Counted from the stretch's first letter, positions 1 through 63,757 are shown. The stretch: DNA of 64,000 nucleotides from an uncultured bacterium (GCA_963841935.1 CAWJEP010000005.1:164003-228002); one strand, 5' to 3'. Numbers and translations: made by a program. Notes: a model not told the origin generated them from the sequence alone.

Positions 1-1047
1 GACACAATTCTCATCTCCATTCTCATCGTCATCGCCGCAGTAATTCTTTTTTTCCAGATAAAAAATCGCAAGCCGGAAAAAGAGGAGAAACCGGACAAAG
101 CTTTGGATTTGCTGCTTCAGCAGATGAACGAGCTTTCTCGCACCGTCGACCGCAAAATGGGCGAGACGACGAAATCGATGAGTGATTCCATTCATAAGCA
201 ATTTTCCGAATCGGCGAAACTCATCCGCGATGTCACCGAAGGCCTGACCAAGCTCGACGAGACGAACAAGCAGGTCGTGTCTTTCGCCGACCAGCTTCAA
301 TCTCTCCAAGATATTTTTTCCAATCCGAAACAGCGCGGGGTGGTGGGGGAATATTATCTCGAAACGCTTTTGAAAAATGTCTTGCCGCCGGGGAGTTTCG
401 AAATGCAATACGCTTTCAAAGACGGAACGATCGTTGACGCCATTGTCAGAGTCCAGAAAAAAATTATTCCTATTGACTCAAAGTTTTCTTTCGAGAATTA
501 TCAGCGGCTCGTCGAAGAAAGAAATCCGACGGAAAAAGAACGCTTGGAAAAAGATTTCGTCAACGACTTGAAAAACAGAATCGTGGAGACCTCGAAATAC
601 ATCAAGCCCGCCGAAGGCACGATGGATTTCGCTTTTATGTTCATTCCGCACGAGGCGATTTATTACGATTTGCTCACGAACAAAGTGGGCGCGCTCACTG
701 GAGAAAACGAGAACCTTATTCAGAGGGCCGCCGGAAAATACAAAGTCATAATTGTCTCGCCGACATCGTTCCTCGCTTATCTTCAGACGGTTCTCCAGGG
801 ACTTAAAGCCCTTCAAATCGAAGAATCGGCGAAAGAAATCCGCGGCAATGTGGAAACGCTTCAAAAACATTTAATGGGCTACGCCGAGTACCAAGAAAAA
901 CTCGGAAACGCTCTCGGCACGACGGTGAATCATTTCAATGCCTCAAGCAAGCAGTTCCGCCTTATAAACAAAGACGTCATAAAAATCACCGAGAAAGGCA
1001 AGGAATACGAGCCGGACCTCATCGAAAAACCGGAAACGGAGGAATAG
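1..1047 (+). CDS. rmuC: DNA recombination protein RmuC (5' partial; N-terminal TM helix runs off window start)
   Basis: Reading frame is open from nt 1. The hydrophobic N-terminus followed by a coiled-coil and a conserved C-terminal domain matches RmuC architecture. Confidence 0.7.
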   Translation, partial: DTILISILIVIAAVILFFQIKNRKPEKEEKPDKALDLLLQQMNELSRTVDRKMGETTKSMSDSIHKQFSESAKLIRDVTEGLTKLDETNKQVVSFADQLQSLQDIFSNPKQRGVVGEYYLETLLKNVLPPGSFEMQYAFKDGTIVDAIVRVQKKIIPIDSKFSFENYQRLVEERNPTEKERLEKDFVNDLKNRIVETSKYIKPAEGTMDFAFMFIPHEAIYYDLLTNKVGALTGENENLIQRAAGKYKVIIVSPTSFLAYLQTVLQGLKALQIEESAKEIRGNVETLQKHLMGYAEYQEKLGNALGTTVNHFNASSKQFRLINKDVIKITEKGKEYEPDLIEKPETEE

Positions 1048-1074
1048 TTGCGATTTTTTCGTATATGTGTAAAT

Positions 1075-1446
1075 ATGGCTATTCCTATGGCAACAAAGAA
1101 AACAACTAAAACCGCGACAAATCCGAACGAAATTGCCGTCATTATGACGGGAGGAAAGCAATACAAAGTTTCGCAGGGAAGCGTCCTTAAGATTGAAAAA
1201 ATTCTCGGCGACCACAAAGAAGGCGGCAAACTCGTATTTGACGAAGTTCTAATGACGGATGATGGCACAAAGACAACCGTCGGCACGCCGAAAGTCGCCG
1301 GAGCGAAAGTCGAAGGCGTCATAAAAGAAATCGGACGAAATGCCAAAGTCACGGTCATTCACTACAAGAACAAAAGCCGTTATTACAAGAAAGCCGGTCA
1401 CAGACAGCCATTTTTCAAAGTAGAAATCACCAACATCAAAGCATAA
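1075..1446 (+). CDS. rplU: 50S ribosomal protein L21 (bL21)
   Basis: The 'TGGKQYKVSQGSVLKIEKI' motif matches the bL21 family. Start chosen at the ATG at 1075 inside the longer TTG ORF. Confidence 0.85.
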   Translation: MAIPMATKKTTKTATNPNEIAVIMTGGKQYKVSQGSVLKIEKILGDHKEGGKLVFDEVLMTDDGTKTTVGTPKVAGAKVEGVIKEIGRNAKVTVIHYKNKSRYYKKAGHRQPFFKVEITNIKA

Positions 1447-1519
1447 GAAAAGCGGCGGGTATTTTCGAGCGCGTAAGTCGGAGCGAAGCGCACAAGCGAG
1501 AAAATACCCGCCGCTTTTC
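1447..1519. repeat. Palindromic repeat element copy A (19-bp perfect inverted arms flanking the conserved 35-nt core); also serves as the rplU terminator-like hairpin
   Basis: Arms gaaaagcggcgggtatttt / aaaatacccgccgcttttc flank the core cgagcgcgtaagtcggagcgaagcgcacaagcgag. The same core recurs at 8307, 31790, 46992 and (reverse complemented) 49872. Confidence 0.85.
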
Positions 1520-1579
1520 TATGGCGATTTTTGTTATTCACAGGCTATCAACATTGGCGATGGCTTATTAAGGTTTATA

Positions 1580-1837
1580 ATGGTTGCCATGCAAGGCAAT
1601 TTTCTCACTATCAAACGCGCGTCCGAACTCCTCGAGGTCACGCCGCTCACTCTTCGCAATTGGGACAAGAACGGCAAACTCTCGGCAAGGCGCCATCCGA
1701 TGAGCAATTATCGTATATACTTGAGAGAAGACATAGAAAAATTAATAAGCGAAATCACCGTGGGCTCAGCGGCTATAAAAGCCAAGCCAAGAAAATCTTT
1801 GAAGAGGAAACTCGTGGTGAGGAGCGTGAGCGATTAA
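1580..1837 (+). CDS. Small MerR-family-like HTH DNA-binding protein
   Basis: 'IKRASELLEVTPLTLRNWDKNGKL' is a MerR-type helix-turn-helix. The gene is 85 aa. Confidence 0.55.
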   Translation: MVAMQGNFLTIKRASELLEVTPLTLRNWDKNGKLSARRHPMSNYRIYLREDIEKLISEITVGSAAIKAKPRKSLKRKLVVRSVSD

Positions 1838-1857
1838 AAAAATAAAATCATTTCATT

Positions 1858-2850
1858 ATGAAGAAAATACGAGTGGCGATAAACGGTTTCGGCAGGATAG
1901 GCAGGGCATTTTACAAACTCGCAGTGGAGAGAAACGAAATCGAAGTTGTAGCAATAAACGATTTGGGCAATCGCGAGAATATGGAATATCTCTTGAAGTA
2001 CGACAGCGTCTACGGTCAAAGCGCCGTAACTCTCGAAGGCGTGGAATTTCTAAGCGAAAAAGACCCGACGCAATTGCCGTGGAAAAAATTCGACATTGAT
2101 GTCGTCGTCGAATCGACCGGACTTTTCGTCGATTACACCAAAGCCAAAGTCCATCTCGACGCCGGAGCCAAACGCGTCGTCATTACCGCGCCGGCAAAGG
2201 GCGGTATTGAAGGCAAAGACGGCGTGACGGTGCTTATGGGGCTCAATGAAGAGCGATTTAAGACTTGTCCCATAACCTCAAACGCTTCCTGCACGACAAA
2301 CGCCGGAAGCCCGCTTATGGCTATTCTCGATGAAACTATCGGCATAGAAAAAGCCGTCCTCAATACCGTCCACGCCTACACCGCGAGTCAGGCGATAGTT
2401 GACGGACCGGCGAAGAAAGATTTACGCGAGGGCAGGGCGGCGGCGCAAAACATCGTCCCGTCTTCGACCGGCGCGGCCATTGCCGTGACAAAAGCCTTGC
2501 CCCAACTAGAAAATAAATTCGATGGAATATCCATCCGCGTGCCGGTCGTCGTCGGTTCGATTGTCGACATCACATTCATCGCCAAAAGAAACACCACGAA
2601 AGAAGAAGTGAATTCCATTTTGAAAAAAGCCGCGGCAGACGCACGCTGGCAAAATATTTTCACCGTGTCGGAAGAACCACTCGTATCGTCGGATATCAAA
2701 GGTAATCCTCACGCATCCATCGCCGATCTCGAGATGACTCGCGTCGTCGGCGGAAACCTGGTGAAAGTTCTCGGCTGGTACGACAACGAAATGGGATATA
2801 CTCACACTCTAGTCGACCATGTTATCGAAGCGGGAAGTCTCGTAAAATAA
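1858..2850 (+). CDS. gap: Glyceraldehyde-3-phosphate dehydrogenase, type I
   Basis: N-terminal NAD-binding 'INGFGRIGR' and catalytic 'SNASCTTN' motifs are present. Confidence 0.92.
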
Positions 2851-2851
2851 A

Positions 2852-3304
2852 ATGAAGATCTTTATCGGAAGCGACCACGCGGGATTTGAACTTAAGAAAA
2901 CTTTGCTTGAGTATTTAAACGACCTCGGACACGATGTAAGCGACATGGGGGCGAAGAAACTTGACCCTCTCGACGATTATCCGGATTTTATAATTCCGGT
3001 CGCAAAAGAAGTCTCCCACGCGCCAGACAAATTCCGCGGCATCGTCATCGGCGGCTCGGGACAAGGCGAAGCGATGTGCGCCAACAAGGTCTACGGCGTG
3101 CGCGCGGCGGTCTATTACGGAGGGAACTCCGACATCGTGAAGCTATCGCGCGAGCACAATGACGCAAATGTTTTGTCGCTTGGCGCGCGCTTCGTCGGCC
3201 CCGACGAAGCGCGCGCCGCCGTTCGGCTCTGGCTCGATACACCTTTTTCCGGCGACGAGCGACACAAACGGCGAATTTTGAAAATGTATTCGATAAAAAA
3301 ATAA
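2852..3304 (+). CDS. rpiB: Ribose-5-phosphate isomerase B (RpiB/LacAB family)
   Basis: '[15 protein letters not shown]' N-terminus; 150 aa. Confidence 0.85.
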
Positions 3305-46507: not shown

Positions 46508-49393
46508 CTAGTTTGGAACAATAAAATTTATTATTTTGTTTTTCACGTAAATTATTTTCGACGGTGTTTTTCCGGAGAGCCATTTCTCTAATTCCGACGC
46601 GGCAAAAGCGACTGCTTTTGCCGCGTCTTCGTCGGCATCCGCGGGCACCTCAATCACCGCGCGAACTTTGCCGTTTACTTGTACGGCAATATTTACTTTG
46701 GCGTCTTTGATAAACGCTTCATCCCACTTAGGCCAATCGGAAAGATGTATGGACTTTTTGTTTCCAAGCGAGCGCCATAATTCTTCGCTTATGTGTGGAG
46801 CGAAAGGCGCGAGAAGCTTCAAATAGCTCTCAAAATCGGCGCGAGCTATTGTCGGCACCTTGTCAAAAGCGTTTTGCAAAATCATAAGCGAACTTATCGC
46901 CGTGTTGAAACGCAAATTGGCGATGTCTTCGGTAACTTTCTTGATTGTTTTGTGTAAAAGCGTGTTTGTCGAAGAAAAAACAGCCTCTGGCGAGCGCGTA
47001 GTCTTAGCGGAGTCGGCGGAGCGCACAAGCGAGCCAGAGGCTGTTTTTTCGGAGACTTTCCACACGCGTTCGATGAACCGCCGCGAGCCAATCATACTGT
47101 CGGTGGACCATGCTATGGCTTGATCGAAAGGTCCCATAAACATTTCGTAAACGCGCAAAGTGTCGGCGCCGTATGTCGCGACTATGTCGTCGGGATTTAC
47201 GACATTGCCGAAACGTTTGGACATTTTTCTGCCGTCTTCGCCCATTATGAGTCCGACCGACTGCAATTTTTTAAACGGCTCGATTGTCGAGACAACGCCA
47301 ATGTCGTAAAGAAATTTGTGCCAAAAACGCGCGTATATGAGATGGCGTGTGGCGTGCTCGGCGCCGCCCACATAAAAGTCCACGCTGTTCCAATATTTTT
47401 CTTTTTTCGGAGAAACTAAAACCTTGGAGTCTTTCGGGTCCATATATCGCAAGTAATACCAAGAGCTCCCTGCCCATTGCGGCATCGTATTCGTCTCTCG
47501 TTTCATTCCTTTGAAATTGACCCATTTAGAAATCTCAGCCAAAGGCGACTCCCCCGTTCCCGTCGGTTCGTAATATTTCACTTTCGGCAATACCACCGGC
47601 AAATCTTTTTCCGAGACCGGCACTATTTTATTTCCGTTATGAAGCACCGGGATCGGCTCACCCCAATAGCGCTGCCGTGAGAAAACCCAATCTTTCAATT
47701 TGTATTTCGTCACCCATTTTCCGCCGGCTTTTTCGATGGCGTTCCTATCGGCAAACGGTTCGTCCTTTACGGGCAACTTGAACTTTTCCGCGAACGCCGC
47801 GTCTCTCTCGTCGTGTTTCGGCACTCCCATCACGGCTCCCGTGCCGTAATCGGCAAGGACATAGTCAGCAATCCAGACCGGCACCTCTTCCCCATTCACT
47901 GGATTTACCGCCTTGATTCCTTTCAATTCAACGCCGGTTTTTTCTTTCTTTGCGTCCGTGCGCTCAATTTCCGTTTTGATTCTCGCGGCGGCGACATATT
48001 TCACGACTTCTTTTTCGTTTTTCACTTCATGCAAAAGTTTTTCCACGAGCGGATGCTCCGGAGAAAGCACGACATACGTCACGCCGAAAAGCGTGTCTGG
48101 ACGAGTAGTGAAAACTTTTATTTTTTCCGTTTGATTTTTTATGGCGAAATCGATTTCCGCGCCTTCGCTTCGGCCAATCCAATTTCTCTGCGCCTCTTTT
48201 ATGGATTCCGGCCAATCAAGAAGCGGCTTCACAATATGGCGTGGCGCGCCGTCCATTACCAAATCCCAGCCGAGTTTCGAACCTTCGGCCGTCATTGCGT
48301 CACGAACTTTTTCCTCGGGAAGCCAAGTGACTTCGTGTTTGGCTTGTTCGTCAGCTACGACAGGAGCTTGTTCGCCGTCTTTTAGTTTGAAATAAAAAGA
48401 AGTGAAATGTCCGACGCGGTTTTCGTCTTTCGGCGGATGGAAAAATGTCGAGTGGTATTGACCGGCGCTTCTTTTCACGAGCGTCAGGTTTTTAAATCCC
48501 GTCTCTTCGAATATTTCCGCTCGCGCCGCTTCTTCCGGCGTCTGGCCTTTTTCGATGCCGCCAGTGATAGGAGTCGTCCAATCCACCTTTTTCCATTTGA
48601 GAACTATAAATTTCTTCTCCGACCAGTGTTCGACAAAAGCGCATATGGCGTTTCTCGGAACAAACGGCTTGTCCAATCTCACTTTGCCCGGAACATCGCT
48701 ATTCATATGGGTGATTCCAAATTCGCCATTCGGCAATGTCTCAAAAATGTCGCCGTTTGGCAAAACATTGGTGTCCAAGTCTTTCAAAAGTCTGTCGGCG
48801 TAATCGGTGATTTTCAAAACCCACTGGCGCATCGGTTTCTTCTCGACCGGCGTGCCGCAGCGCTCGCAGCGACCGTCTTCGACGTCTTCGTTCGCGAGGC
48901 CGGTCTTACACGACGGACACCAATTTATCGGCTCGTATGATTCGTAAGCCAAGCCTTTTTCCAAAAGTTTGAGAAAAATCCATTGCGTCCATTTGTAATA
49001 TTTCGGGTCGGTCGTGTTGATTTCCCTACTCCAATCATAATCAAAACCAATGATTTCCAGCTGTTTTTTGTACCTTGCGACATTTTTCGCCACGGCCACG
49101 ACCGGATTGGTCTTGGTCAAAATGGCGTAATTTTCCGCCGGCAAGCCGAAAGCGTCGAAACCCATTGGATGTAAGACGTTGTGCCCCTGCATCCTTTTCA
49201 TTCGGGAGACGATGTCGGTCGCGATGTAGCCCTTCGGATGGCCGACATGAAGACCTTCGCCCGAAGGATACGGAAACATATCGAGAACATAAAACTTGGG
49301 CTTGGGAGAATCATCCTTGGTCGCGTATATTTTCTTTTTCGCCCACCCCTTCTGCCACTTTTTTTCTATTTTCTTATGGTCGTATTGTTTCAT
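46508..49393 (-). CDS. leuS: Leucyl-tRNA synthetase carrying (i) an inserted NUDIX hydrolase domain and (ii) an in-frame palindromic-element insertion
   Basis: 'HVGHPKGY' HIGH motif, 'KMSKRFGN' and editing/anticodon domains. A Nudix box 'GGIEKGQTPEEAARAEIFEETGF' sits between '...LKDLD' and 'WPESIKEAQRNWIGRSEG'. Start is the ATG at 49393. Confidence 0.9.
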   Translation of the reverse strand: MKQYDHKKIEKKWQKGWAKKKIYATKDDSPKPKFYVLDMFPYPSGEGLHVGHPKGYIATDIVSRMKRMQGHNVLHPMGFDAFGLPAENYAILTKTNPVVAVAKNVARYKKQLEIIGFDYDWSREINTTDPKYYKWTQWIFLKLLEKGLAYESYEPINWCPSCKTGLANEDVEDGRCERCGTPVEKKPMRQWVLKITDYADRLLKDLDTNVLPNGDIFETLPNGEFGITHMNSDVPGKVRLDKPFVPRNAICAFVEHWSEKKFIVLKWKKVDWTTPITGGIEKGQTPEEAARAEIFEETGFKNLTLVKRSAGQYHSTFFHPPKDENRVGHFTSFYFKLKDGEQAPVVADEQAKHEVTWLPEEKVRDAMTAEGSKLGWDLVMDGAPRHIVKPLLDWPESIKEAQRNWIGRSEGAEIDFAIKNQTEKIKVFTTRPDTLFGVTYVVLSPEHPLVEKLLHEVKNEKEVVKYVAAARIKTEIERTDAKKEKTGVELKGIKAVNPVNGEEVPVWIADYVLADYGTGAVMGVPKHDERDAAFAEKFKLPVKDEPFADRNAIEKAGGKWVTKYKLKDWVFSRQRYWGEPIPVLHNGNKIVPVSEKDLPVVLPKVKYYEPTGTGESPLAEISKWVNFKGMKRETNTMPQWAGSSWYYLRYMDPKDSKVLVSPKKEKYWNSVDFYVGGAEHATRHLIYARFWHKFLYDIGVVSTIEPFKKLQSVGLIMGEDGRKMSKRFGNVVNPDDIVATYGADTLRVYEMFMGPFDQAIAWSTDSMIGSRRFIERVWKVSEKTASGSLVRSADSAKTTRSPEAVFSSTNTLLHKTIKKVTEDIANLRFNTAISSLMILQNAFDKVPTIARADFESYLKLLAPFAPHISEELWRSLGNKKSIHLSDWPKWDEAFIKDAKVNIAVQVNGKVRAVIEVPADADEDAAKAVAFAASELEKWLSGKTPSKIIYVKNKIINFIVPN
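46974..47050. repeat. Palindromic repeat element copy D inserted in frame within leuS (arms aaaaaacagcctctgg / ccagaggctgtttttt)
   Basis: Core gagcgcgtagtcttagcggagtcggcggagcgcacaagcgag. It is translated as ...KTASGSLVRSADSAKTTRSPEAVFS... in LeuRS. Confidence 0.8.
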
Positions 49394-49823
49394 TTTTAAA
49401 TTTGCGCAGAGCGAGATATATGAGTGCGATGAGAGCAATGCCGAGAATGACGACTCTCATCCAGCCGTAAGCCGACGACCAATATCTGAAAGACGCTATG
49501 ACAAGCGTGAGTATTCCGGAGAACGAAAGCGATGTGGAAACCACGGCATTTGTTTTCAAAAAGAAACTTAGGACGATGAGAATGACTCCGACGGCGACGA
49601 GAGTCATAAAGACTTCCGCCTGATAATTATTTTCCGCGGCGGTGTAATTATTTGAGCAAATGACATCGTTGGATTGCGGCGTAATAACGTCCGTTTGCGG
49701 GCAGAAATCGTTATATTGTGGCTCTTGGTAAATAAGCGAAAGAGAATAATTTATGAACATATTGGCGACGATGACGATGCCAATGATGAGCGACCATTTG
49801 AGAAGTTTTGATTGCTTTTGCAT
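49374..49823 (-). CDS. Hypothetical membrane protein (3-4 TM)
   Basis: Hydrophobic helices. It overlaps the leuS start by about 20 nt. Confidence 0.5.
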   Translation of the reverse strand: MQKQSKLLKWSLIIGIVIVANMFINYSLSLIYQEPQYNDFCPQTDVITPQSNDVICSNNYTAAENNYQAEVFMTLVAVGVILIVLSFFLKTNAVVSTSLSFSGILTLVIASFRYWSSAYGWMRVVILGIALIALIYLALRKFKNETIRP

Positions 49824-52899: not shown

Positions 52900-54252
52900 T
52901 TATCCCGTCCAATGCGAGGCCATGATACTGAAGTCAACGAGGTCAACCTTGCCGTCACCGTTTAAGTCCGCCGACTTTGGCGGATTTGAACGATTAAACC
53001 AATACGCGAGAATGGAAAAATCAATGAGATTTACCTTACCGTCGCAGTTTATGTCTGATTTTATGCAAGCGGTGGAAACTGGTACTAAAACGTCTTGCGT
53101 GCCGACGGAGAAACCAACCGAGGCGCTAAACTCGCTTATATTGCCTTGAGTTGAGGATTTTGATTTCGTCGTGTGGTCGCCGTAGTCAAGCGGCGTGGTA
53201 TCAAGATTGTAAAGATAAATACCGCTTTTATCCGACGCGGTAACTCCAAAAAGGGTCTGGTCGGAATTTACTTGTATGGTAACCGTGCTTGAAGCGGATG
53301 TTTGCCCGAAAATAGCAAGATTGTCGCCTTTCTTAACCTCGCTTTTATCAACGGCAATGGTGGGAACGATGAAAATACTCCCAATGTTTGTCGTCACGCC
53401 GGATGTCACGCTTGCCGGAAACGTTAAGAGGTCGGAACGCCGTCCCGCGTTGTCGCTTCCATAAACGGAAAACAAATAATTTCCCGCCGGGACACCGCTT
53501 ACCTCTACTTGAAAATTAGCGTCGGCGTCGGCAATAGTGGAAGCGACAACTTGAGCATCTTCAAGAATCGTCACATCACTTGACGGATACGCCCGACCAG
53601 AAAAAATCACGTTGCCCATGCCGGAGGGAGTTGAATTATAATTTCCGCCGCCGCCCCCTCCACCACCTCCTCCGCCTCCACCTCCACCACCGCCTCCACC
53701 GCCGCCACCTGATGATGCCGGAGTCGCGGAGACCTCGGACGAAGTCGCGATAACATTGCTGAACGTGTCCAATACATCCACCACAAAATAGTAAGTCGTG
53801 CCATTGGAAAGACCTGTTTGCGCGTGAGAAAACGTGTTACCGACGGAAGTGAAAGAGTAAGGTCCGCCCGGCGTCGTCCCCTGCCCTATTGAATATCCGG
53901 AAATGCTAAGTCCGCTTCCGGCGGTTGCCGACGTCCAAGACAAAGATACTTGAGAATCGCCGGGAGTCGTCTGGACGACGGGCGAAGAAAAATAGGGAAA
54001 ATAAAGAAAACCACCTAGAACGTCAAAAGAGTTCCCCGTTGAGATGCCTATGGCCGCCTGGTCCATGGCTCCGAGCAATTCAAAACTATTGGACGAACTA
54101 TAATTCCCGGAGTTTATAATCGGATTACGGACTTGATAATCAGAGGAATAGAATGTTTGTGAATGAACGGGTTTTATGTTTAAAAAAAATGTGCCGGAAA
54201 TTAGCAATAAACAAATTAGAAAAAATTGTTTCTGTAAATTTTTAAAATACAT
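52900..54252 (-). CDS. Secreted protein with FN3/Ig-like domains, a (Gly)23 linker and a C-terminal type-I dockerin domain
   Basis: Two Ca-binding dockerin repeats 'DINCDGKVNLIDFSILAYWF' and 'DLNGDGKVDLVDFSIMASHW', a 23-Gly run and a signal peptide. Confidence 0.7.
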   Translation of the reverse strand: MYFKNLQKQFFLICLLLISGTFFLNIKPVHSQTFYSSDYQVRNPIINSGNYSSSNSFELLGAMDQAAIGISTGNSFDVLGGFLYFPYFSSPVVQTTPGDSQVSLSWTSATAGSGLSISGYSIGQGTTPGGPYSFTSVGNTFSHAQTGLSNGTTYYFVVDVLDTFSNVIATSSEVSATPASSGGGGGGGGGGGGGGGGGGGGGGNYNSTPSGMGNVIFSGRAYPSSDVTILEDAQVVASTIADADANFQVEVSGVPAGNYLFSVYGSDNAGRRSDLLTFPASVTSGVTTNIGSIFIVPTIAVDKSEVKKGDNLAIFGQTSASSTVTIQVNSDQTLFGVTASDKSGIYLYNLDTTPLDYGDHTTKSKSSTQGNISEFSASVGFSVGTQDVLVPVSTACIKSDINCDGKVNLIDFSILAYWFNRSNPPKSADLNGDGKVDLVDFSIMASHWTG

Positions 54253-54272: not shown

Positions 54273-55217
54273 TTATTGCGTCTGTCCGTCAGTGGTATCC
54301 GATGCGGTAGTTGTTTCAACAGTCGGCGCCGGCGTTTCGGTTGTGGATGTGGCCTCCAGCGTTGGCTCTTGAGTCGTATCCGAAGTTGACGTGGCGGTTT
54401 CCGAAGTCTCTGTTGAAGTTGTAGCCGTCGCGGTCGTGTAATCGGTTGCCGTTTCTGTAGTTGTCGCGGTTGCGGTTTCAGTTGTAGTTGCGGTTGAAGT
54501 TGTCGCGGTTGCGGTTGAAGTTGAAGTTACGGTTGAAGTTACCGTCGGTTCTTGCGCGGATTCCGTTTGAGATGAAGTCGGATTTGAAGTCTGGTTTACT
54601 TGGGATTCCGGGTTCGGAGTAGAAACTACGACCGATGTTTGCCTTGCTTCTACGGTAGCGGCAACTTCCGGAACGGCTTCCGGTATGACCGGATTATAAC
54701 CTTCTATGATTTCTGTTCTGGGATTCAAGAATTTTCCGATAAGGCCGGAATATTCCACCGTAACTACTTTTTGAGACGACCCTGCCGCTTCTTCCAGTTT
54801 CTGAACTCTTTTCAAAGAAGATAGTTCGTAGTTGATATTGTCACTCAACTCTTTTGCAACATAGAGCCCGAGGTCTTTATCGCCCAAAGCCGCCTTGCTT
54901 ACCGTCAAAGTTTTTTCTACCTGTTTTACCTGCCAGGCACCGTCAACAATTGCCAGCGTCTGATAGGAATAATCGGCATAATAATTTTTATCGTCATCGG
55001 TAATGGAATTTATCTTCAGATTGAAATTAAAGTTATCCAAATCGGTAGAAAGAATCAAACTATTATCCACGGAAGTCACTGCGGTTCTGCTGGAATATAT
55101 ACTATCGCGCGCCGTTGGGCTGGCGGCAAAAACTATTCCGGAACTAAAAAAACAAACGATAAAAACAATGGTAAAAGCGTTATTGTATTTTACGAAATTG
55201 AGAACTTTTTTATACAT
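54273..55217 (-). CDS. Secreted protein with a Thr/Ser-rich mucin-like C-terminal tail
   Basis: Signal peptide, then about 100 residues dominated by T/S/A/E ('TSTVTSTSTATATTSTATTTETATATTTETAT...'). Confidence 0.6.
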   Translation of the reverse strand: MYKKVLNFVKYNNAFTIVFIVCFFSSGIVFAASPTARDSIYSSRTAVTSVDNSLILSTDLDNFNFNLKINSITDDDKNYYADYSYQTLAIVDGAWQVKQVEKTLTVSKAALGDKDLGLYVAKELSDNINYELSSLKRVQKLEEAAGSSQKVVTVEYSGLIGKFLNPRTEIIEGYNPVIPEAVPEVAATVEARQTSVVVSTPNPESQVNQTSNPTSSQTESAQEPTVTSTVTSTSTATATTSTATTTETATATTTETATDYTTATATTSTETSETATSTSDTTQEPTLEATSTTETPAPTVETTTASDTTDGQTQ

Positions 55218-55259
55218 ATTCGGCTTTAATTATAGTGAAAAAAAAGATGTAAAGCAATA

Positions 55260-58200
55260 TTAACAATTCCAAATCACTCCGTTTATATCCATAATCGACG
55301 CGGCCGGCATTCCATTGACTGTTTTTATTGAAGTTTTATCGAGATTGTTTATTGTTTTTAGTTCCACGACGCAAACAGATGGGCTGACCGAAGGTGAGAT
55401 ACTCGGTGACGGGCTGACGCTTGGACTGGGAGAAACGCTCGGTGAAATTGACGGTGATGGACTGATTGATGGTGAAGCTGATGGACTTGGAGAAGTGCTC
55501 GGTGAGAGTGACGGTGAAAGTGACGACAAAGGTGACGGTGATATGGATGGCGATATCGATGGAGATTCGGATGGAGAGATAGATGGACTAAGAGACGGCG
55601 AAGGGCTGACGCTCGGTGACAAAGATGGGCTCGGACTGACAGATGGAGATACCGAGGGTGAAAGGCTTGGGCCGATGGACGGCGAAAGTGACGGCGAAAG
55701 TGATGGGCTGATACTCGGCGAGAGACTTGGCGAGAGAGACGGTGATGGAGAAACTGACGGGGAAACTGAAGGACTTAAACTTGGACTAAGAGATGGTGAG
55801 GGCGAAACCGAAGGAGAAATGCTCGGAGAAAGCGATGGTGAAAGTGATGGGCTCGGACTAACTGAAGGTGAAATGCTCGGCGAGAGAGACGGGCTGAGTG
55901 ACGGCGACAAACTCGGCGAAAGTGAAGGACTTGGAGATACGGACGGCGAAACGGACGGAGAAATACTCGGCGAGAGAGATGAACCAGCTGAAGGAGAAAC
56001 CGAGGGAGAGATACTTGGCGAAAGTGACGGACTTGGGGAAACGGACGGCGAAACCGAAGGTGAAATGCTTGGCGAGAGTGATGGGCTTGGCGAAACCGAC
56101 GGCGAAATACTCGGTGAAAGTGAAGGAGAAAGTGACGGAGACAAACTCGGCGAGAGAGACGGCGATGGAGAAACTGACGGACTAACTGAAGGACTTAAAG
56201 ATGGCGAGAGCGAGGGACTTGGTGAAGTCGAAGGTGAAACGCTTGGGCTAAGCGAAGGTGAAAGAGACGGCGAGAGACTCGGCGATAGACTTGGGCTCGG
56301 TGAAACTGAGGGTGAAACCGACGGAGAAATACTTGGCGAGAGTGAAGGGCTTGGACTAACCGATGGTGAAATACTTGGTGAAAGAGATGGAGACAAACTT
56401 GGCGAGAGACTCGGCGAAATGCTCGGGCTCGGTGAGACCGAAGGGCTGACTGATGGTGAGATGCTCGGTGAGAGTGATGGCGAAGGTGAAACCGATGGTG
56501 AGATCGATGGTGAGAGAGATGGACTAAGTGATGGAGAAAGTGATGGCGATATCGAAGGGCTTGGACTGACTGATGGTGAGACCGAAGGACTCAAACTCGG
56601 TGACAGAGACGGTGATGGCGAAACCGACGGCGAAATACTCGGTGAAAGTGAAGGAGAAAGTGACGGAGACAAACTTGGCGAGAGAGACGGCGATGGAGAA
56701 ACTGACGGACTAACTGAAGGACTTAAAGATGGCGAGAGCGAGGGACTTGGTGAAGTCGAAGGTGAAACGCTTGGGCTAAGCGAAGGTGAAAGAGACGGCG
56801 AGAGACTCGGCGATAGACTTGGGCTCGGTGAAACTGAGGGTGAAACCGACGGAGAAATACTTGGCGAGAGTGAAGGGCTTGGACTAACCGATGGTGAAAT
56901 ACTTGGTGAAAGAGATGGAGACAAACTTGGCGAGAGACTCGGCGAAATGCTCGGGCTCGGTGAGACCGAAGGGCTGACTGATGGTGAGATGCTCGGTGAG
57001 AGTGATGGCGAAGGTGAAACCGATGGTGAGATCGATGGTGAGAGAGATGGACTAAGTGATGGAGAAAGTGATGGCGATATCGAAGGGCTTGGACTGACTG
57101 ATGGTGAGACCGAAGGACTCAAACTCGGTGACAGAGACGGTGATGGCGAAACCGACGGCGAAATACTCGGTGAAAGTGAAGGAGAAAGTGACGGAGACAA
57201 ACTTGGCGAGAGAGACGGCGATGGAGAAACTGACGGACTAACTGAAGGACTTAAAGATGGCGAGAGCGAGGGACTTGGTGAAGTCGAAGGTGAAACGCTT
57301 GGGCTAAGCGAAGGTGAAAGAGACGGCGAGAGACTCGGCGATAGACTTGGGCTCGGTGAAACTGAGGGTGAAACCGACGGAGAAATACTTGGCGAGAGTG
57401 AAGGGCTTGGACTAACCGATGGTGAAATACTTGGTGAAAGAGATGGAGACAAACTTGGCGAGAGACTCGGCGAAATGCTCGGGCTCGGTGAGACCGAAGG
57501 GCTGACTGATGGTGAGATGCTCGGTGAGAGTGATGGCGAAGGTGAAACCGATGGTGAGATCGATGGTGAGAGAGATGGACTAAGTGATGGAGAAAGTGAT
57601 GGCGATATCGAAGGGCTTGGACTGACTGATGGTGAGACCGAAGGACTCAAACTCGGTGACAGAGACGGTGATGGCGAAACCGACGGCGAAATACTCGGTG
57701 AAAGTGAAGGAGAAAGTGACGGAGACAAACTTGGCGAGAGAGACGGCGATGGAGAAACTGACGGACTAACTGAAGGACTTAAAGATGGCGAGAGCGAGGG
57801 ACTTGGTGAAGTCGAAGGTGAAACGCTTGGGCTAAGCGAAGGTGAAAGAGACGGCGAGAGACTCGGCGATAGACTTGGGCTCGGTGAAACTGAGGGTGAA
57901 ACCGACGGAGAAATACTTGGCGAGAGTGAAGGGCTTGGACTAACCGATGGTGAAATACTTGGTGAAAGAGATGGAGACAAACTTGGCGAGAGACTCGGCG
58001 AAATGCTCGGGCTCGGTGAGACCGAAGGGCTGACTGATGGTGAGATGCTCGGTGAGAGTGATGGCGAAGGTGAAACCGATGGTGAGATCGATGGTGAGAG
58101 AGATGGACTAAGTGATGGAGAAAGTGATGGCGATATCGAAGGGCTTGGACTGACTGATGGTGAGACCGAAGGACTCAAACTCGGTGACAGAGACGGTGAT

Positions 58201-60012
58201 GGCGAAACCGACGGCGAAATACTCGGTGAAAGTGAAGGAGAAAGTGACGGAGACAAACTTGGCGAGAGAGACGGCGATGGAGAAACTGACGGACTAACTG
58301 AAGGACTTAAAGATGGCGAGAGCGAGGGACTTGGTGAAGTCGAAGGTGAAACGCTTGGGCTAAGCGAAGGTGAAAGAGACGGCGAGAGACTCGGCGAAAT
58401 GCTCGGGCTCGGTGAGACCGAAGGGCTGACTGATGGTGAGATGCTCGGTGAGAGTGATGGCGAAGGTGAAACCGATGGTGAGATCGATGGTGAGAGAGAT
58501 GGACTAAGTGATGGAGAAAGTGATGGCGATATCGAAGGGCTTGGACTGACTGATGGTGAGACCGAAGGACTCAAACTCGGTGACAGAGACGGTGATGGCG
58601 AAACCGACGGCGAAATACTCGGTGAAAGTGAAGGAGAAAGTGACGGAGACAAACTCGGCGAGAGAGACGGCGATGGAGAAACTGACGGACTAACTGAAGG
58701 ACTTAAAGATGGCGAGAGACTCGGCGATAGACTTGGGCTCGGTGAAACTGACGGACTGACTGAAGGACTTAAAGATGGCGAGAGCGAGGGACTTGGTGAA
58801 GTCGAAGGTGAAATGCTCGGCGAGAGAGAGGGCTGAAAGTGACGGCGAGAGACTCGGCGATAGACTTGGGCTCGGTGAAACTGAGGGTGAAACCGACGGA
58901 GAAATACTTGGCGAGAGTGAAGGGCTTGGACTAACCGATGGTGAAATACTTGGTGAAAGAGATGGAGACAAACTTGGCGAGAGACTCGGCGAAATGCTCG
59001 GGCTCGGTGAGACCGAAGGGCTGACTGATGGTGAGATGCTCGGTGAGAGTGATGGCGAAGGTGAAACCGATGGTGAGATCGATGGTGAGAGAGATGGACT
59101 AAGTGATGGAGAAAGTGATGGCGATATCGAAGGGCTTGGACTGACTGATGGTGAGACCGAAGGACTCAAACTCGGTGACAGAGACGGTGATGGCGAAACC
59201 GACGGCGAAATACTCGGTGAAAGTGAAGGAGAAAGTGACGGAGACAAACTCGGTGAAAGACTCGGCGAAAGACTTGGACTTGGAGATACGGAGGGTGAAA
59301 TGGACGGAGAAAGAGATGGAGAAATACTCGGACTAAGCGATGGACTAAGTGACGAAATAAACCATGTGATTTGAATGACTCCGTTTCCTCCCTGTCCTCC
59401 TGTGTTACCGTTTCTTCCCGACCCTCCACCACCGCCTCCATAGTTTGCTCCGTTAGCGCCAGTTGCGTTTACTCCTCCAGCTCCTCCGTTTCCGGCTGGA
59501 GTTCCCCCATTTGCTCCACCAGCGTGAGTTCCCGACCCATTCGCTCCGGTTCCTCCGTTTCCAGTGTTCCCGGCTCCTCCACCTCCTCCACCTCCGTTGT
59601 TGCTACCTCCGTTTCCTCCGTTTCCTCCGTTGTGTGACGTCCAAGTGACGACTCCGTTACCGGTTGTGTTGCTATTACCCCCGACTCCACGTGCGCCACC
59701 GGCGTTGCCTCCACCACCTCCACCGGCCGCCTCGATGATAAGAGTGTTGCCCGCAGTATTGAAAAATGTGGTTCCGCCAGCGCCGCCGGATGCGTTTGCG
59801 GTTCGTGTTCCGCCGTTTCCGGCGGAATAATTAAAAGCGATGTTCGGACCAGATATGGTTATAGTTGTCTGAGCCCAAGCGCCACCACCACCACCACTAC
59901 CGTTGTTGCCTCCACCACCTCCACCTCCACCTCCAATAACCTGAACAACCGCGGAAGTTGCTGTGGTGCTATTCCATGTACCGCTACCTGTAAGATTTGA
60001 TGTTGTCGCCAT
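55260..60012 (-). CDS. Giant (about 1580 aa) protein: Gly/Asn-rich N-terminal domain followed by more than 1100 aa of (S-P-S-L/I/V)n low-complexity repeat. Interrupted by one frameshift at about 58836-58850.
   Basis: ORF 58690-60012 starts with a non-repetitive Gly-rich domain and runs in frame into SPSx repeats. ORF 55260-58652 continues the same repeat. The repeat consensus gains +1 nt at about 58845. All neighbours are minus-strand. The plus-strand alternative (acidic GExxGE repeat, ORF 55315-58836) cannot be excluded. Confidence 0.55.
55400..59340. repeat. Tandem-repeat DNA: 12-nt (4-codon) units organised into 528-bp higher-order repeats (at least 4 near-identical copies at 56101-58212, plus partial copies)
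   Basis: 'accgaaggactcaaactcggtgacagagacggtgatggcgaaaccgacggcgaaatactc' recurs at 56581, 57109, 57637, 58165 (period 528) and again at 58561 (period 396). Confidence 0.9.
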
Positions 60013-60042
60013 TAATTTTGGTCGGAGGCCTTTGTTAAATTA

Positions 60043-61236
60043 CTACCGACTATCAAATGCTTTCCTTGTTTTATCTATAGACCATATATTTCCCGCTTCA
60101 TTTTCGCTGTATATATCAAATTCGAAAAGCGCGTCTTTGACACTCTGTCTATCAAAGTCATGTCCGCAAAGAATTTTTTTACACTTCGGATACCACGCGT
60201 TTAGGTCTCTTAAGACGGACTCTTTGTCATGAGCGCCGTCGATAAAGACCATGTCTATGGAGTTATCTTCAAAATGCTTCGCCGCCTCGGCGCTATCCAT
60301 TTTTAATATTTCGACGTTTTTGAAACCCGACATATTCCGTCTCAAATCCGATTCGGCGTCGGGATTAAATTTTGATTTCTGAGAGAAATTATCTACAAGT
60401 GTCACTTTCCCGGGACATCCGCTGGCGATGGCGTGACCGCTTTTTCCTTTCCAGCTTCCAATTTCAACGACCGATTTCATTTTTTTGGCCGTGAGATAAA
60501 GCCAGGTCATTTCCGACAAGAGCAAATACCCTTCTATTTTGGGGTCTTTATAATCGCTGATTTCCCAATTAGCCAAAGTTTTTATCATTCCTTTAACTTT
60601 TTGCTTGGTAGGTATTACATATTCATGCCACAGGTAGTTTCCTCCGGCGTTTATTTCCTGGGTCAGTTGTGTGACGGTTTTGAATTTCAACCCGTATTTG
60701 GCTATGTTTCTTGAAAGAGTGTAATCGTCAATGAGATGTTCCCGCGTAACAACTGTGTTTAACTCTTTCTGAATGGGAAAAATATTTCCAAGCGCCTCTT
60801 CGTAGGGAATATCAAGAGGGTGCCAGAGGTCAAGGCACCAATCCGAGGCAATGGTGAACCAGTTGCAAGAACCGATATTCCTGCCGTCACGGATGAAATA
60901 TTTGTCATAACGCGAACGGTTATTGGCCATGTCACAACCGTTATGAACCACGGTGTCTTTCTTGATAAAATTCGTCACATCAAAAAAATCCGGGTGAACC
61001 AGAGCGTCCGAGTCGATATAAATATTCCAATCGTTGCCCATTTTTTTGCCGAGCTCGTAAATTTGCAATTTTTCGTAAACCGGCGGCATATTTGGAAATT
61101 TGCGCTCGGAAATTATGTGGAAATCCGCTCCGATTTTCTCCGCGTAGCGTTTTATCAAGGGATAAGTAAGCTCTGTTATTTCCGGAGCGTAATTATCGAC
61201 GTTCAAAGTGAAAATTGTTTTTTTAAGTTTTGACAT
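60043..61236 (-). CDS. Putative GT-A-fold glycosyltransferase (DxD) fused to a C-terminal class-I SAM-dependent O-methyltransferase domain
   Basis: N-terminal half is paralogous to the next two genes ('KKTIFTLNVDNY...YEKLQIYELG...IDSD'). C-terminal 'VVEIGSWKGKSG...IDMVFIDGAHDKESV' is an O-MTase (Methyltransf_24-like) motif. Confidence 0.5.
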   Translation of the reverse strand: MSKLKKTIFTLNVDNYAPEITELTYPLIKRYAEKIGADFHIISERKFPNMPPVYEKLQIYELGKKMGNDWNIYIDSDALVHPDFFDVTNFIKKDTVVHNGCDMANNRSRYDKYFIRDGRNIGSCNWFTIASDWCLDLWHPLDIPYEEALGNIFPIQKELNTVVTREHLIDDYTLSRNIAKYGLKFKTVTQLTQEINAGGNYLWHEYVIPTKQKVKGMIKTLANWEISDYKDPKIEGYLLLSEMTWLYLTAKKMKSVVEIGSWKGKSGHAIASGCPGKVTLVDNFSQKSKFNPDAESDLRRNMSGFKNVEILKMDSAEAAKHFEDNSIDMVFIDGAHDKESVLRDLNAWYPKCKKILCGHDFDRQSVKDALFEFDIYSENEAGNIWSIDKTRKAFDSR

Positions 61237-61237
61237 T

Positions 61238-61969
61238 TTATTTTATATAATTCCAATTTTTTAATTTCTCCCTGATTTTCTCGGCTCTGTCTTTTTCTTG
61301 AACCGAAAAATCATAATAAAAATATTCATCTCCGCCCCTTCCTATTTCATTGAGAAGGTTCACGAAAGTTTTGAATTTTATGCCGTATTTGGCGATATTT
61401 CTGCTTACAACGTAATCATCAATGCCTTGCTCATTGGTGTGTCCGGTCATTTCTTCACGGTGAATGATATTAATATTTTTGAGCGCTTCGGGAGCTGTCA
61501 TATCGTCAAGCGGTTTCCAAATCTCATGACATAGTGATGAAGCGACTGTTAGAAATGATGTGCTGTTTATATTTCTGCCGTCTCGTCTAAAGAAATTGTC
61601 GTAACTGAAACGGTTACCCGCGAAATCAACGCCGAAATTTAAAACCGTATCTTCTGGAAGAACTTCAGTTATGTCAAAAAGGTCCGGATGAACCAAGCAG
61701 TTCGGGTCGATGTAATAGTTCCAGTCATTATCCTTTCCAAGTTCGTAAATCTGAAGTTTTTCGTACATTACGGGGTAATTCGGAAACTTGCGTTCATTGA
61801 TTATCTTCAAATCCGCGCCAATTTTGTCTGCGAATCTTTTAAGAAAAGGTAAGGTAAGTTTCACTACTTCGATATCATAATTGTCAAAACCCAGCGTGAA
61901 AATGGTTCTCTTTAATTTTTTTTGTGGTTGGTCGGAGTACATATATAAATTATTAATTAATAACCCCAA
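61238..61969 (-). CDS. Putative GT-A-fold glycosyltransferase, paralog 2 of the tandem triplet
   Basis: 'KRTIFTLGFDNYDIEVVKLTLPFLKRFADKIGADLKIINERKFP...YEKLQIYELGK...YYIDPN' is paralogous to 60043-61236 and 61957-62649. Confidence 0.5.
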   Translation of the reverse strand: MGLLINNLYMYSDQPQKKLKRTIFTLGFDNYDIEVVKLTLPFLKRFADKIGADLKIINERKFPNYPVMYEKLQIYELGKDNDWNYYIDPNCLVHPDLFDITEVLPEDTVLNFGVDFAGNRFSYDNFFRRDGRNINSTSFLTVASSLCHEIWKPLDDMTAPEALKNINIIHREEMTGHTNEQGIDDYVVSRNIAKYGIKFKTFVNLLNEIGRGGDEYFYYDFSVQEKDRAEKIREKLKNWNYIK

Positions 61970-62649
61970 GAACTAATGCGTTCCTTTATTTCTTTGATTT
62001 TTTTTTCTTTGGGGATACCGAACTGGTGGTATATAAGCCCATAATCCTGTAAGCCCCTCTCGACGAAGACATCCCTTAGGGCCTTATATTTTAGGCCGTA
62101 TTTGGCGATATTTCTGGAAATAAGATAATCATCAATAAGATAATCGGGTGTGTAACCTATTAATTCTTCGTTGTGCCAAGGGTGGAAACGGCTGAATATT
62201 TCTTTCTTGGTCAGATCGGTAATCGGCTCCCACATTTCGCGACACAGATTTGAAGCGAACATCATACAACTTCCCATAGACACGTGTCTTCCGGCTCGCA
62301 AAAAATAATTGTCGAGCTCGTAGTGTCCCTCCAGAGGATTTACTCCCCATGTTGAAACAGTGTCGTTTGAAATAACCTCGGTGATGTCAAAAAGTTTGGG
62401 GTTAATCAAAACATCGCAATCAAAAAAAAGTCCCCAATCAATATCTTTACTCAGTTCGTAGATTTGAAATTTTTCGTAAATAACGGGATATTCCGGAAAT
62501 TTTCTTTTGTTAATTTCCACGAACTCGGCGCCGATTTTGTCGGCATACATTTTCATATATGGATAAGTAAGCTTGGTTATATCGTCAGCGTAACCATCAA
62601 TATTGAGGGTAAAAATCGTTTTCTTGATTTTTCTAGGTATGTCATTCAT
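61957..62649 (-). CDS. Putative GT-A-fold glycosyltransferase, paralog 3 of the tandem triplet
   Basis: 'KKTIFTLNIDGYADDITKLTYPYMKMYADKIGAEFVEINKRKFP...YEKFQIYELSK...FFDCD'. Start is the ATG at 62649. Confidence 0.5.
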   Translation of the reverse strand: MNDIPRKIKKTIFTLNIDGYADDITKLTYPYMKMYADKIGAEFVEINKRKFPEYPVIYEKFQIYELSKDIDWGLFFDCDVLINPKLFDITEVISNDTVSTWGVNPLEGHYELDNYFLRAGRHVSMGSCMMFASNLCREMWEPITDLTKKEIFSRFHPWHNEELIGYTPDYLIDDYLISRNIAKYGLKYKALRDVFVERGLQDYGLIYHQFGIPKEKKIKEIKERISSWGY

Positions 62650-62791
62650 ATTATTTCTTAATAATTTCCCATTAATTCCCCCGTTCACATAAAGAAAAGG
62701 CAAGTTTATTTTAGTAAACCCGTGAACATATTGTAGCATTTTTAAAATCGGACCTTACATTACGGCATCGCCTTCACTCAGACTCTGGATT

Positions 62792-63757
62792 TCATTTGAT
62801 TTTCTTGATTTTATCCAAATCTTCCTGTTTCCAACCATTTACCGGCCAGAACTTTTCCAAGAGCCAGGACATGGGATAGATTTGTTTCGGCCAATTATTA
62901 TCAAAAAATAAATTCCAGACTTTCTTTTTTGTCTTTTGAACTTCGCTCTCGTGTTGCGGATATGGGAACCCGAAATCCCCGCCTTGTGTCCTGAACATAT
63001 GGGCATACCAAGTTTTATGATTGACGAGTACCCTGCCACCGGAGAGCCATGTCTTTACGGCCACTTCTATTCCCTGATTGCCCCAGTTGCCGAGTTTCTC
63101 GTCGCAGATATTGAGCTCCCAGTATTTTTCGCGAGTCAGCATAAAGCATGAACCTTGGAGCGACAGCGTTTCGGTTAAACCCGTTTCTTCCAAATCTTTT
63201 TTATATCCCGGTCTTTTGGTGTAGTCGTTGAAATATTGAAAATGCGGTTCGGCGTCGAAACTGTACGAATTGCTTTGAGGCCTTTCCTTGCCGACCCATA
63301 TCATTTTTCTCCTCATGTGTTTTTCGTCTCCGCATTGTTCGCATTTCTTCGGTGTCGGACCTTGATACTTTTTCCAACCGCACTTGTAGCATTTCCAATC
63401 AAAGGCCCAGAGATTTCGCATGGTCGGCACCATGGTCACGTTGTCCCCGACTTTCTTGAAAGCTTCTATCATTTTGCGGTCAAAACCTTTGTCAAAAGCG
63501 CAGTGAGCGTCGACTTTCATCACGTATTTGGCCTTTGAAAGTTTGCAGGCGAGATTGGCCGTGGCTCTTTGACCAATGGATTCCGGGACATATATGACGT
63601 TTACCCTCTCGTTTTGGAGCACGGGCGGGTCGGCCCACTTCCCATCCAAGACGACTATGACCTCCGTATCGGCTTCTATGTTGGCCAAAATGTCCTCTAT
63701 GGTCCTTTGGAGGAACATTTCATTTCTGGCGGGTATAAGTATGGATAATTCTTTCAT
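62792..63757 (-). CDS. Family-2 glycosyltransferase with an inserted CxxC...CxxC zinc-ribbon
   Basis: 'LSILIPARNE...VVLDGKWAD...DAHCAF' is a GT2 signature. 'CYKCGWKKYQGPTPKKCEQCGDE' is an insertion. Confidence 0.7.
   Translation of the reverse strand: MKELSILIPARNEMFLQRTIEDILANIEADTEVIVVLDGKWADPPVLQNERVNVIYVPESIGQRATANLACKLSKAKYVMKVDAHCAFDKGFDRKMIEAFKKVGDNVTMVPTMRNLWAFDWKCYKCGWKKYQGPTPKKCEQCGDEKHMRRKMIWVGKERPQSNSYSFDAEPHFQYFNDYTKRPGYKKDLEETGLTETLSLQGSCFMLTREKYWELNICDEKLGNWGNQGIEVAVKTWLSGGRVLVNHKTWYAHMFRTQGGDFGFPYPQHESEVQKTKKKVWNLFFDNNWPKQIYPMSWLLEKFWPVNGWKQEDLDKIKKIK

Follow-up and report, generated by a model that had tools for sequence, protein, structure and literature searches.

The alpha C and Rib proteins of group B Streptococcus, Aap and SasG of Staphylococcus and Esp of Enterococcus are encoded by genes with virtually identical in-frame DNA repeats of hundreds of bases, whose copy number shifts by homologous unequal exchange and thereby alters the length of the projecting surface protein. 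A gene that likewise holds long, near-identical in-frame DNA repeats lies on the minus strand of the stretch of 64,000 nucleotides analysed here (GCA_963841935.1, CAWJEP010000005.1:164003-228002; "the window" below), part of the chromosome of an ultra-small bacterium of the Candidate Phyla Radiation (CPR, or Patescibacteria). Its product consists of a glycine-rich head, a stalk of SPSx tetrapeptides and a small C-terminal domain, and part of the stalk is encoded by a 528-nt (176-aa) unit repeated head to tail. By contrast with the folded Rib and G5-E domains repeated in the streptococcal, staphylococcal and enterococcal proteins, the repeated material here is a low-complexity tetrapeptide array, and four older 44-aa motifs with diverged codons make up each long, higher-order unit. 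Events that leave identical long in-frame repeats in projecting surface proteins are well known; this one concerns a little-known gene family.

Serine-rich repeat proteins (SRRPs) such as GspB, Fap1, PsrP and the Lactobacillus SRRP combine a long serine stalk with a ligand-binding domain and a dedicated glycosyltransferase cluster (PMC6973325, PMC7661464). The gene in the window resembles them in its alternate-serine stalk, non-repeat head and adjoining glycosyltransferases. By analogy, its product may work like an SRRP, yet it fails the other defining features that were checked: no accessory Sec (aSec)-type signal peptide or LPXTG anchor was seen in the protein, no secA2/secY2/asp or gtfA/gtfB gene was found among the genes scanned (50-64 kb of the window plus 7 kb further upstream, holding GT-A, GT2, methyltransferase and immunoglobulin (Ig)-like/dockerin protein genes), and the glycosyltransferases are GT-A fold paralogues in place of GtfA/GtfB. 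The polyglycine head at the extreme N-terminus and the CPR host are further differences. These N-terminal 220 aa are probably of the polyglycine type found in Salmonella phage S16 gp38, mycobacteriophage Bxb1 gp33/gp29, the cyanophage Pam3 fibre and the ALK/LTK domains, and polyglycine/polyproline II (PPII)-helix bundles of phage fibres and adhesins have been grouped together (PMC13243192). Unlike the phage fibres, the head in the window is carried by a 1583-aa serine-rich protein encoded on a cellular chromosome, and its binding role is putative; the model is of moderate confidence, with a predicted local distance difference test (pLDDT) score of 73. As for repeat architecture, spidroin genes hold short motifs nested in long units, with the long units far more alike than the motifs (PMC9779670). 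The array in the window is nested in the same manner as spider silk 'ensemble' repeats, mucin variable-number tandem repeats and alpha-satellite higher-order repeats, with its long units the more alike. By contrast with these eukaryotic arrays, which have many more copies and sustained homogenisation, it represents one young burst of ~6 unit-equivalents in a bacterial gene.

A general repeat search gave only a 300-nt family at 60-87% identity, and direct lag analysis was used instead. Tandem Repeats Finder, with a period limit of 500, lists periods of 132, 264 and 396 instead of 528 and under-reports the array. A sequence-only reading of this stretch had proposed a period of exactly 528 with units marked at 56581, 57109, 57637 and 58165, to be seen in a self-comparison for 528-bp periodicity; run as lag analysis, this comparison gave lag 528 as the top self-identity peak (0.62 over 55200-60100 and 0.71 over 55300-59350), and the four marks proved to be in register. 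Autocorrelation peaks were found at 528, 1056, 132 and 396. In position-by-position comparison, 56088-57869 matches 56616-58397 perfectly except at 56148 versus 56676, that is, with 1 difference in 1782 compared positions, and one unit used as a BLAST query returned four complete copies starting at 56088, 56616, 57144 and 57672 with 99.8-100% identity. The limits of 56101-58212 given by the earlier reading fall inside the array, whose true limits are 56088-58400, equivalent to 4.38 copies arranged head to tail with no spacers between them. The shortened 396-nt unit it had described is also present and results from the clean loss of one block: the register jumps at ~58381-58397 from unit position ~198 to ~314 with exactly 132 nt lost, and the unit sequence then runs to 58718 with a single mismatch. 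The crossover that made this 396-nt unit falls within a 17-nt microhomology (GGCGAGAGACTCGGCGA, ~58381-58397), while microhomology at the remaining joints is 8-15 nt long. Similarly, the partial copy it had reported beyond the frameshift exists as a detached 410-nt copy with 0 mismatches at 58841-59250, traceable to 59256 and decaying in identity further out, so that it does not extend to 59340 as had been proposed. Perfect or near-perfect repeat totals ~3.1 kb, and no further copies of the 528-nt unit were found elsewhere in the 64-kb window.

The array is organised in a hierarchy of 12, 132 and 528 nt (528 = 4 x 132 = 44 x 12), in agreement with the earlier claim of a repeat order beyond the 12-nt unit. 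Each 528-nt unit comprises four 44-aa motifs, roughly SPSL-SPSL-SPSL-SPSI-SPSV-SPSP-SLSP… in sequence. The 132-nt blocks within a unit share 91-98% identity as protein and 57-67% as DNA. At residues shared between motifs, codon identity is 0.23-0.39, as against 0.28±0.07 for random synonymous codons, this expectation being obtained by drawing synonymous codons from the gene's own usage. When the protein was re-encoded with random synonymous codons, the longest exact repeat was 24.6 nt (max 32) versus 1721 nt observed, and lag-528 identity over the whole repeat region was 0.575 versus 0.766 observed. An exact multiple period, long units that are more alike than their parts and the absence of spacers, the features of a higher-order tandem repeat, are all found here. 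Thus, an old layer that is codon-saturated and conserved as protein carries one young amplification of four motifs. Given that the 132-nt sub-blocks sit at synonymous saturation, the pattern is not one of general concerted evolution, and the earlier reading went too far in invoking it; its claim that near-identity implies a recent event is supported, in the form of a very recent amplification via out-of-register recombination or slippage. The locus provides a clean two-layer example, in which the old layer has only chance-level exact repeats (~25 nt) and a fresh amplification restores kilobases of homology.

We consider it likely that this is a real and very recent in-frame amplification of the stalk via out-of-register exchange, by a recombination mechanism that we infer as follows. 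At the protein level, copies of the 44-aa (132-nt) motif would have stayed alike even as codon drift reached saturation, and such drift leaves almost no DNA homology for recombination. A short microhomology would then have allowed slippage or an exchange out of register, by which a four-motif block (528 nt, 176 aa) was first duplicated. With two perfect copies in place, ordinary homologous unequal exchange could quickly add or remove copies, with the 4.4 perfect copies, the 396-nt derivative minus one 132-nt block and the detached 410-nt copy as the presumed outcome. Every step would be in frame and change the stalk by 176 (or 44) residues, and the restored perfect homology should destabilise stalk length. 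The features of the locus are collected in Table 1.

Table 1. Features of the repeat gene and of the adjoining glycosyltransferase genes (window coordinates)
Feature	Coordinates	Strand	Remarks
Whole gene, with glycine-rich head, stalk of (Ser-x)n and small C-terminal domain	55260..60012	-	1583-aa open reading frame once 1 base is removed
C-terminal non-repeat domain (…ELKTINNLDKTSIKTVNGMPAASIMDINGVIWNC) and stop	55260..55380	-	Kept in the L004 orthologue
Older SPSx repeats, array 3' end	55381..56087	-	In-register identity to unit 36-59%
Four full 528-nt (176-aa) units, head to tail	56088..58199	-	Sole difference at 56148
Shortened 396-nt unit: 528-nt unit minus one 132-nt (44-aa) block	58200..58595	-	
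Partial unit, unit positions 1-123	58596..58718	-	One mismatch, 58656
122-nt mosaic junction	58719..58840	-	Unit pieces 190-226 and 80-159 with mismatches; 1-nt insertion at 58833/58834
Detached partial 528-nt unit, 410 nt	58841..59250	-	From unit position 179 past the unit end to position 60
First SPSx stalk repeats, outside the 528-nt family	59251..59349	-	Unit identity decays past 59256
N-terminal glycine-rich domain, Pfam PF21722 Gly_rich_2	59350..60012	-	37.7 bits versus cut-off of 24.3
Three tandem GT-A glycosyltransferase paralogues	60043-61236 (fused to Methyltransf_24), 61238-61969, 61957-62739	-	Directly upstream
GT2-family glycosyltransferase, same island	62792..63757	-	Pfam PF00535, E 1.4e-12

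The reading frame of the gene starts at ATG 60012 on the minus strand, where all neighbouring genes also lie, tightly spaced, and the glycine-rich domain leads directly to SPSx repeats. These go on in a second frame of the minus strand from ~58830 to the non-repeat C-terminus and its stop at 55260. As given, the gene is split into open reading frames (ORFs) of 440 aa (60012-58690) and 1130 aa (58652-55260), the first ending 47 out-of-frame codons past the break and the second having an internal Leu TTG as its only start codon. Removing 1 base at 58833 or 58834 joins them into a single ORF of 1583 aa and restores the local SPSL pattern (…SPSLSPSLSPSLSPSLSPSI…). The extra base abuts the edge of the perfect 410-nt copy, which places it at a repeat junction, and the site reads TCA-G-CCC-TCT with C3 as the longest homopolymer. 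We suggest that the frameshift, a single nucleotide at the junction of repeats, stems either from an error in the consensus or from a mutation that inactivated the gene very recently. Two other candidates were rejected: a phase-variable slipped-strand tract, since no long homopolymer or short-unit tract exists at the site (longest run C3), and a programmed +1 frameshift, since on reading the sequence (structures were not searched) UCA to CAG, GCC to CCC and CUC to UCU cannot re-pair.

If the frameshift is real, the gene could be a decaying pseudogene, dead and with its amplification reflecting neutral repeat instability, a possibility that is compatible with the anatomy described above. The break at 58833/58834, the end of the upstream ORF at 58690 after 47 out-of-frame codons and the lack of a plausible +1 slippery sequence at the site (by reading) are all expected from it. 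Related loci, retrieved from genomes and metagenomes with the gene at 60043-61236 as anchor, speak on both sides. The orthologue in a finished Woesebacteria chromosome (L007, CP066693) is also broken, with two identical 1-nt deletions that lie 503 nt from each other; by contrast, that of metagenome contig L018 is intact, a single ORF of 2264 aa in which head, stalk and tail are laid out as in the window. However, in the window the 1130 codons past the shift stay open with 99.6% Ser alternation up to the conserved C-terminal domain, meaning that any inactivation must be extremely recent, and the amplification steps are all multiples of 3. We thus regard a decaying pseudogene as unlikely. In L007 (12960-13500), the orthologue is cut into three ORFs by the identical deletions (…TCCCCTCAATTGGAGTAA…), indicating either that the frameshift-bearing unit was itself duplicated or that the finished genome is mis-assembled there.

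A further possibility is that the array was made by assembly, with the block present once or twice and the assembler or a curator looping a graph cycle into 4.4 copies, the 396-nt variant, the mosaic and the frameshift. An independent assembly of run ERR11630400 (Logan, k=31), in which contigs were found by exact-protein look-up of both flanking genes, bears on this possibility. Both Logan contigs are 100% identical to the window over 7.1 kb of flank and end at 56063 and 59224, so that the k=31 assembly fails across 56063-59224. In the 31-mer graph of the window itself, the first repeated 31-mer is at 56088 and the last at 59223; the right break is thus as predicted. Orthologues behave similarly: the array in a Zambryskibacteria metagenome-assembled genome (MAG; L004), whose C-terminal motif and neighbours are as in the window, holds three N-gaps, and contigs end within the array in L003, L014, L016 and L019 (MAG and metagenome contigs) and in L001 (a Logan contig of ERR11630400). 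The warning in the earlier reading that assemblers mishandle such arrays is borne out by these breaks at both repeat edges and by the gapped or truncated orthologues, and it is plausible that the copy number in the assembly is wrong or variable. In addition, the mosaic that holds the frameshift and the mismatch cluster is flanked by a perfect tract on each side, a place in which errors of the consensus would be expected, and the three large ORFs are without record as called products while the flanking genes are on record (exact-product look-ups of the 440-aa, 1130-aa and 1173-aa ORFs returned none; the last is a plus-strand ORF discussed below). A literature search on ERR11630400 found nothing. 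However, the junction microhomologies of 8-17 nt are below the usual assembler k-mer size, which argues for biological junctions or a long-read consensus and against de Bruijn graph mis-joins, and short-read assemblers usually collapse or break tandem cycles and do not emit 4.4 copies with two derivative units. Taken together, the 4.4 perfect copies, unusual for a short-read assembler, and joints shorter than k suggest that the layout came from long reads; the 268-kb source contig fits long reads, which easily span 3 kb, and the flanks agree fully with the independent assembly. We therefore judge an assembly artefact to be quite improbable. Nevertheless, ~3.2 kb (56063-59224) is beyond the resolution of k-mer assemblies, and because these fail at the array, protein length here and in MAG relatives is not trustworthy without long reads.

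In fully assembled orthologous arrays, the longest exact repeats are only 26-143 nt, the level expected of random synonymous coding. The long perfect repeats may therefore be lineage-specific and recent in this genome, although 'lineage-specific' is perhaps an overstatement. The loci closest by the anchor gene (L003 and L014, 89% identity) have a similar Gly-rich head and, in their last ~400 nt, SSSV/SSSP/SPSS repeats in place of SPSx. In L016, a second SPS/SAS-type array lies ~9 kb upstream of the anchor (229-3132), indicating that some relatives carry two such genes.

At the protein level, the N-terminal match to PF21722 spans profile positions 4-225 of 226 and defines a domain of ~220 aa. 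In Foldseek, an AlphaFold (AF2) model of this head, built from an 8-sequence alignment (pLDDT 73), aligned at template-modelling (TM) scores of ~0.5 with chain 9d93_Qb of the Bxb1 tail tip (E 1e-6) and with 7ypx, the fibre of cyanophage Pam3 (E 2e-5), and showed a weak match to the glycine-rich domain of ALK. Across the 196 cluster representatives returned by an exhaustive HMMER search, proteins carrying the domain range from 129 to 5418 aa in length. A word-indexed search with the head gave 7 weak matches and missed the query itself, poly-Gly words having swamped the search; a PDB sequence search with the head and a search with the aligned C-terminal domains gave no match, and a literature search on PF21722 found nothing. 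The stalk of ~1325 residues is 50% serine, with Ser at 99.6% of alternate positions, in the tetrapeptides SPSL, SPSV, SPSI and SPSP. In staphylococcal surface proteins, stalks of low complexity that are rich in Ser or Pro behave as extended spacers (PMC9881980).

The gene directly upstream encodes an N-terminal GT-A domain of 225 aa that has >1800 homologues and no Pfam or NCBIfam model. Its AF2 model (pLDDT 93) retrieved GT-A glycosyltransferases as all of the top 50 PDB matches, the best being the capsid-glycosylating enzyme A64R of chlorovirus PBCV-1 (2p73, E 1e-7). A DSD motif (D75-S76-D77) is invariant or nearly so in 39 sequences, and a local hidden Markov model (HMM) of the domain matches all three tandem paralogues, which are predicted from these models to be GT-A fold enzymes with a DxD motif. 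Given this neighbourhood, the protein is likely to be a glycosylated fibre, with a polyglycine head and a long, extended serine-proline stalk modified by the adjoining GT-A enzymes; the serine stalk would be O-glycosylated by them and act as an extended spacer.

Several points weigh against a recent, functional amplification of a glycosylated surface stalk. First, the gene as given is frameshifted, and the long stalk may therefore not be translated in this genome; copy number and base 58833 are known from the assembled sequence alone. Second, the left Logan contig stops at 56063, 25 nt before the array and 54 nt before the predicted break, which may reflect heterogeneity or a second left-junction variant in the sample. 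Third, arrays with long perfect repeats would be lost from short-read assemblies, which biases the comparison made with orthologues. Fourth, no signal peptide, membrane anchor or sorting motif was seen on inspection of the sequence: the N-terminus (MATTSNLTGSGTWNSTTATSAVVQVIGGGG) shows no basic or hydrophobic leader (by inspection, with no predictor run), and the C-terminus (…KTVNGMPAASIMDINGVIWNC) lacks both an LPXTG motif and a hydrophobic tail. Surface location is consequently an assumption, and glycosylation is read from gene adjacency only.

The head resembles phage fibre and tail-tip proteins, and the GT-A domain has its closest structural counterpart in a chlorovirus enzyme that glycosylates capsids; both raise the possibility that the gene and its glycosyltransferases are a tail-fibre module of an integrated prophage, in which expansion alters fibre length for host range. 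GT-A homologues do occur on 84 IMG/VR contigs, often with a Gly-rich ORF behind them, and several of these contigs are true phages that carry genes for terminase, portal, major head and tail fibre. However, no phage structural or replication gene was found in the window from 46 to 64 kb, and none of the phage structural kind in the 10 kb upstream in four CPR loci. Those 10 kb hold sugar-nucleotide and polysaccharide genes instead (RmlD-like, epimerase/dehydratase, CapD/PseB-like, UDP-GlcNAc 2-epimerase), together with carbamoyltransferases, methyltransferases and a flippase-like protein. Downstream in the window lie a Thr-rich protein, an FN3/Ig/dockerin protein, Ig-like proteins and leucyl-tRNA synthetase, in keeping with a row of surface proteins and a cellular enzyme, and SPSx-stalk versions were found only in CPR-type loci. 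A prophage origin is therefore very unlikely in our view, and a recent amplification in a chromosomal CPR gene is preferred. An ORF with an N-terminal Gly-rich domain directly follows the GT-A gene in ~50 of 173 related loci; the tails behind the Gly-rich domain vary between globular domains and runs of serine (SPSx for the CPR group, SSSS(R/C) in L063 and L151). The pair of GT-A gene and polyglycine-head gene is thus shared by CPR bacteria and phages and is uncharacterised. That a family of >1800 GT-A proteins consistently pairs with such heads suggests an uncharacterised glycosylated fibre system in bacteria whose host attachment is poorly understood, and this pairing is a more interesting by-product than the repeat. 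We put forward, as a speculation that we hold to be improbable, that the pair forms an undescribed glycosylated-fibre module of phages and CPR bacteria, which in CPR episymbionts would have turned into a very long, O-glycosylated serine-proline fibre for host attachment. Higher-order repeat expansion would change the length of this fibre in 176-residue steps, and junction frameshifts might switch it off, since of three completely assembled loci L018 alone is intact while the window and L007 carry interruptions.

Finally, an ORF with acidic G-E/D-rich repeats stays open on the plus strand for 1173 codons (55315-58836), which speaks for it as the true gene; the idea scarcely deserves credence, however, because this ORF is antisense to all neighbours, lacks a recognised domain, starts inside the C-terminal domain of the minus-strand gene and is conserved at only 50-64% as peptide between 132-nt blocks versus 91-98% for the minus frame, marking it as a by-product of codon periodicity, and because orthologues keep the minus-type frame joined to a Gly-rich head. 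Gene callers may wrongly choose this ORF of G/E/D/L repeats.

No tRNA or Rfam family was found in the window. The protein encoded just 3' of the repeat gene (54273-55217, minus strand) combines a hydrophobic segment at the N-terminus with a low-complexity Thr/Ala/Ser/Glu tail (TATATTSTATTTETAT…), and the gene is conserved at the corresponding place in L004. It is followed by a gene (52900-54252, minus strand) for a secreted FN3/Big_6/dockerin protein with a run of 23 glycines; the far end (53672) of Logan contig L002 falls within this run, which makes it a second k-mer assembly break. Further downstream, 46508-49438 (minus strand) encodes the leucyl-tRNA synthetase of 976 aa, in which a NUDIX hydrolase domain (PF00293, E 7e-12, residues 286-382) precedes the editing domain as an insertion; such a fusion is unusual among aminoacyl-tRNA synthetases.

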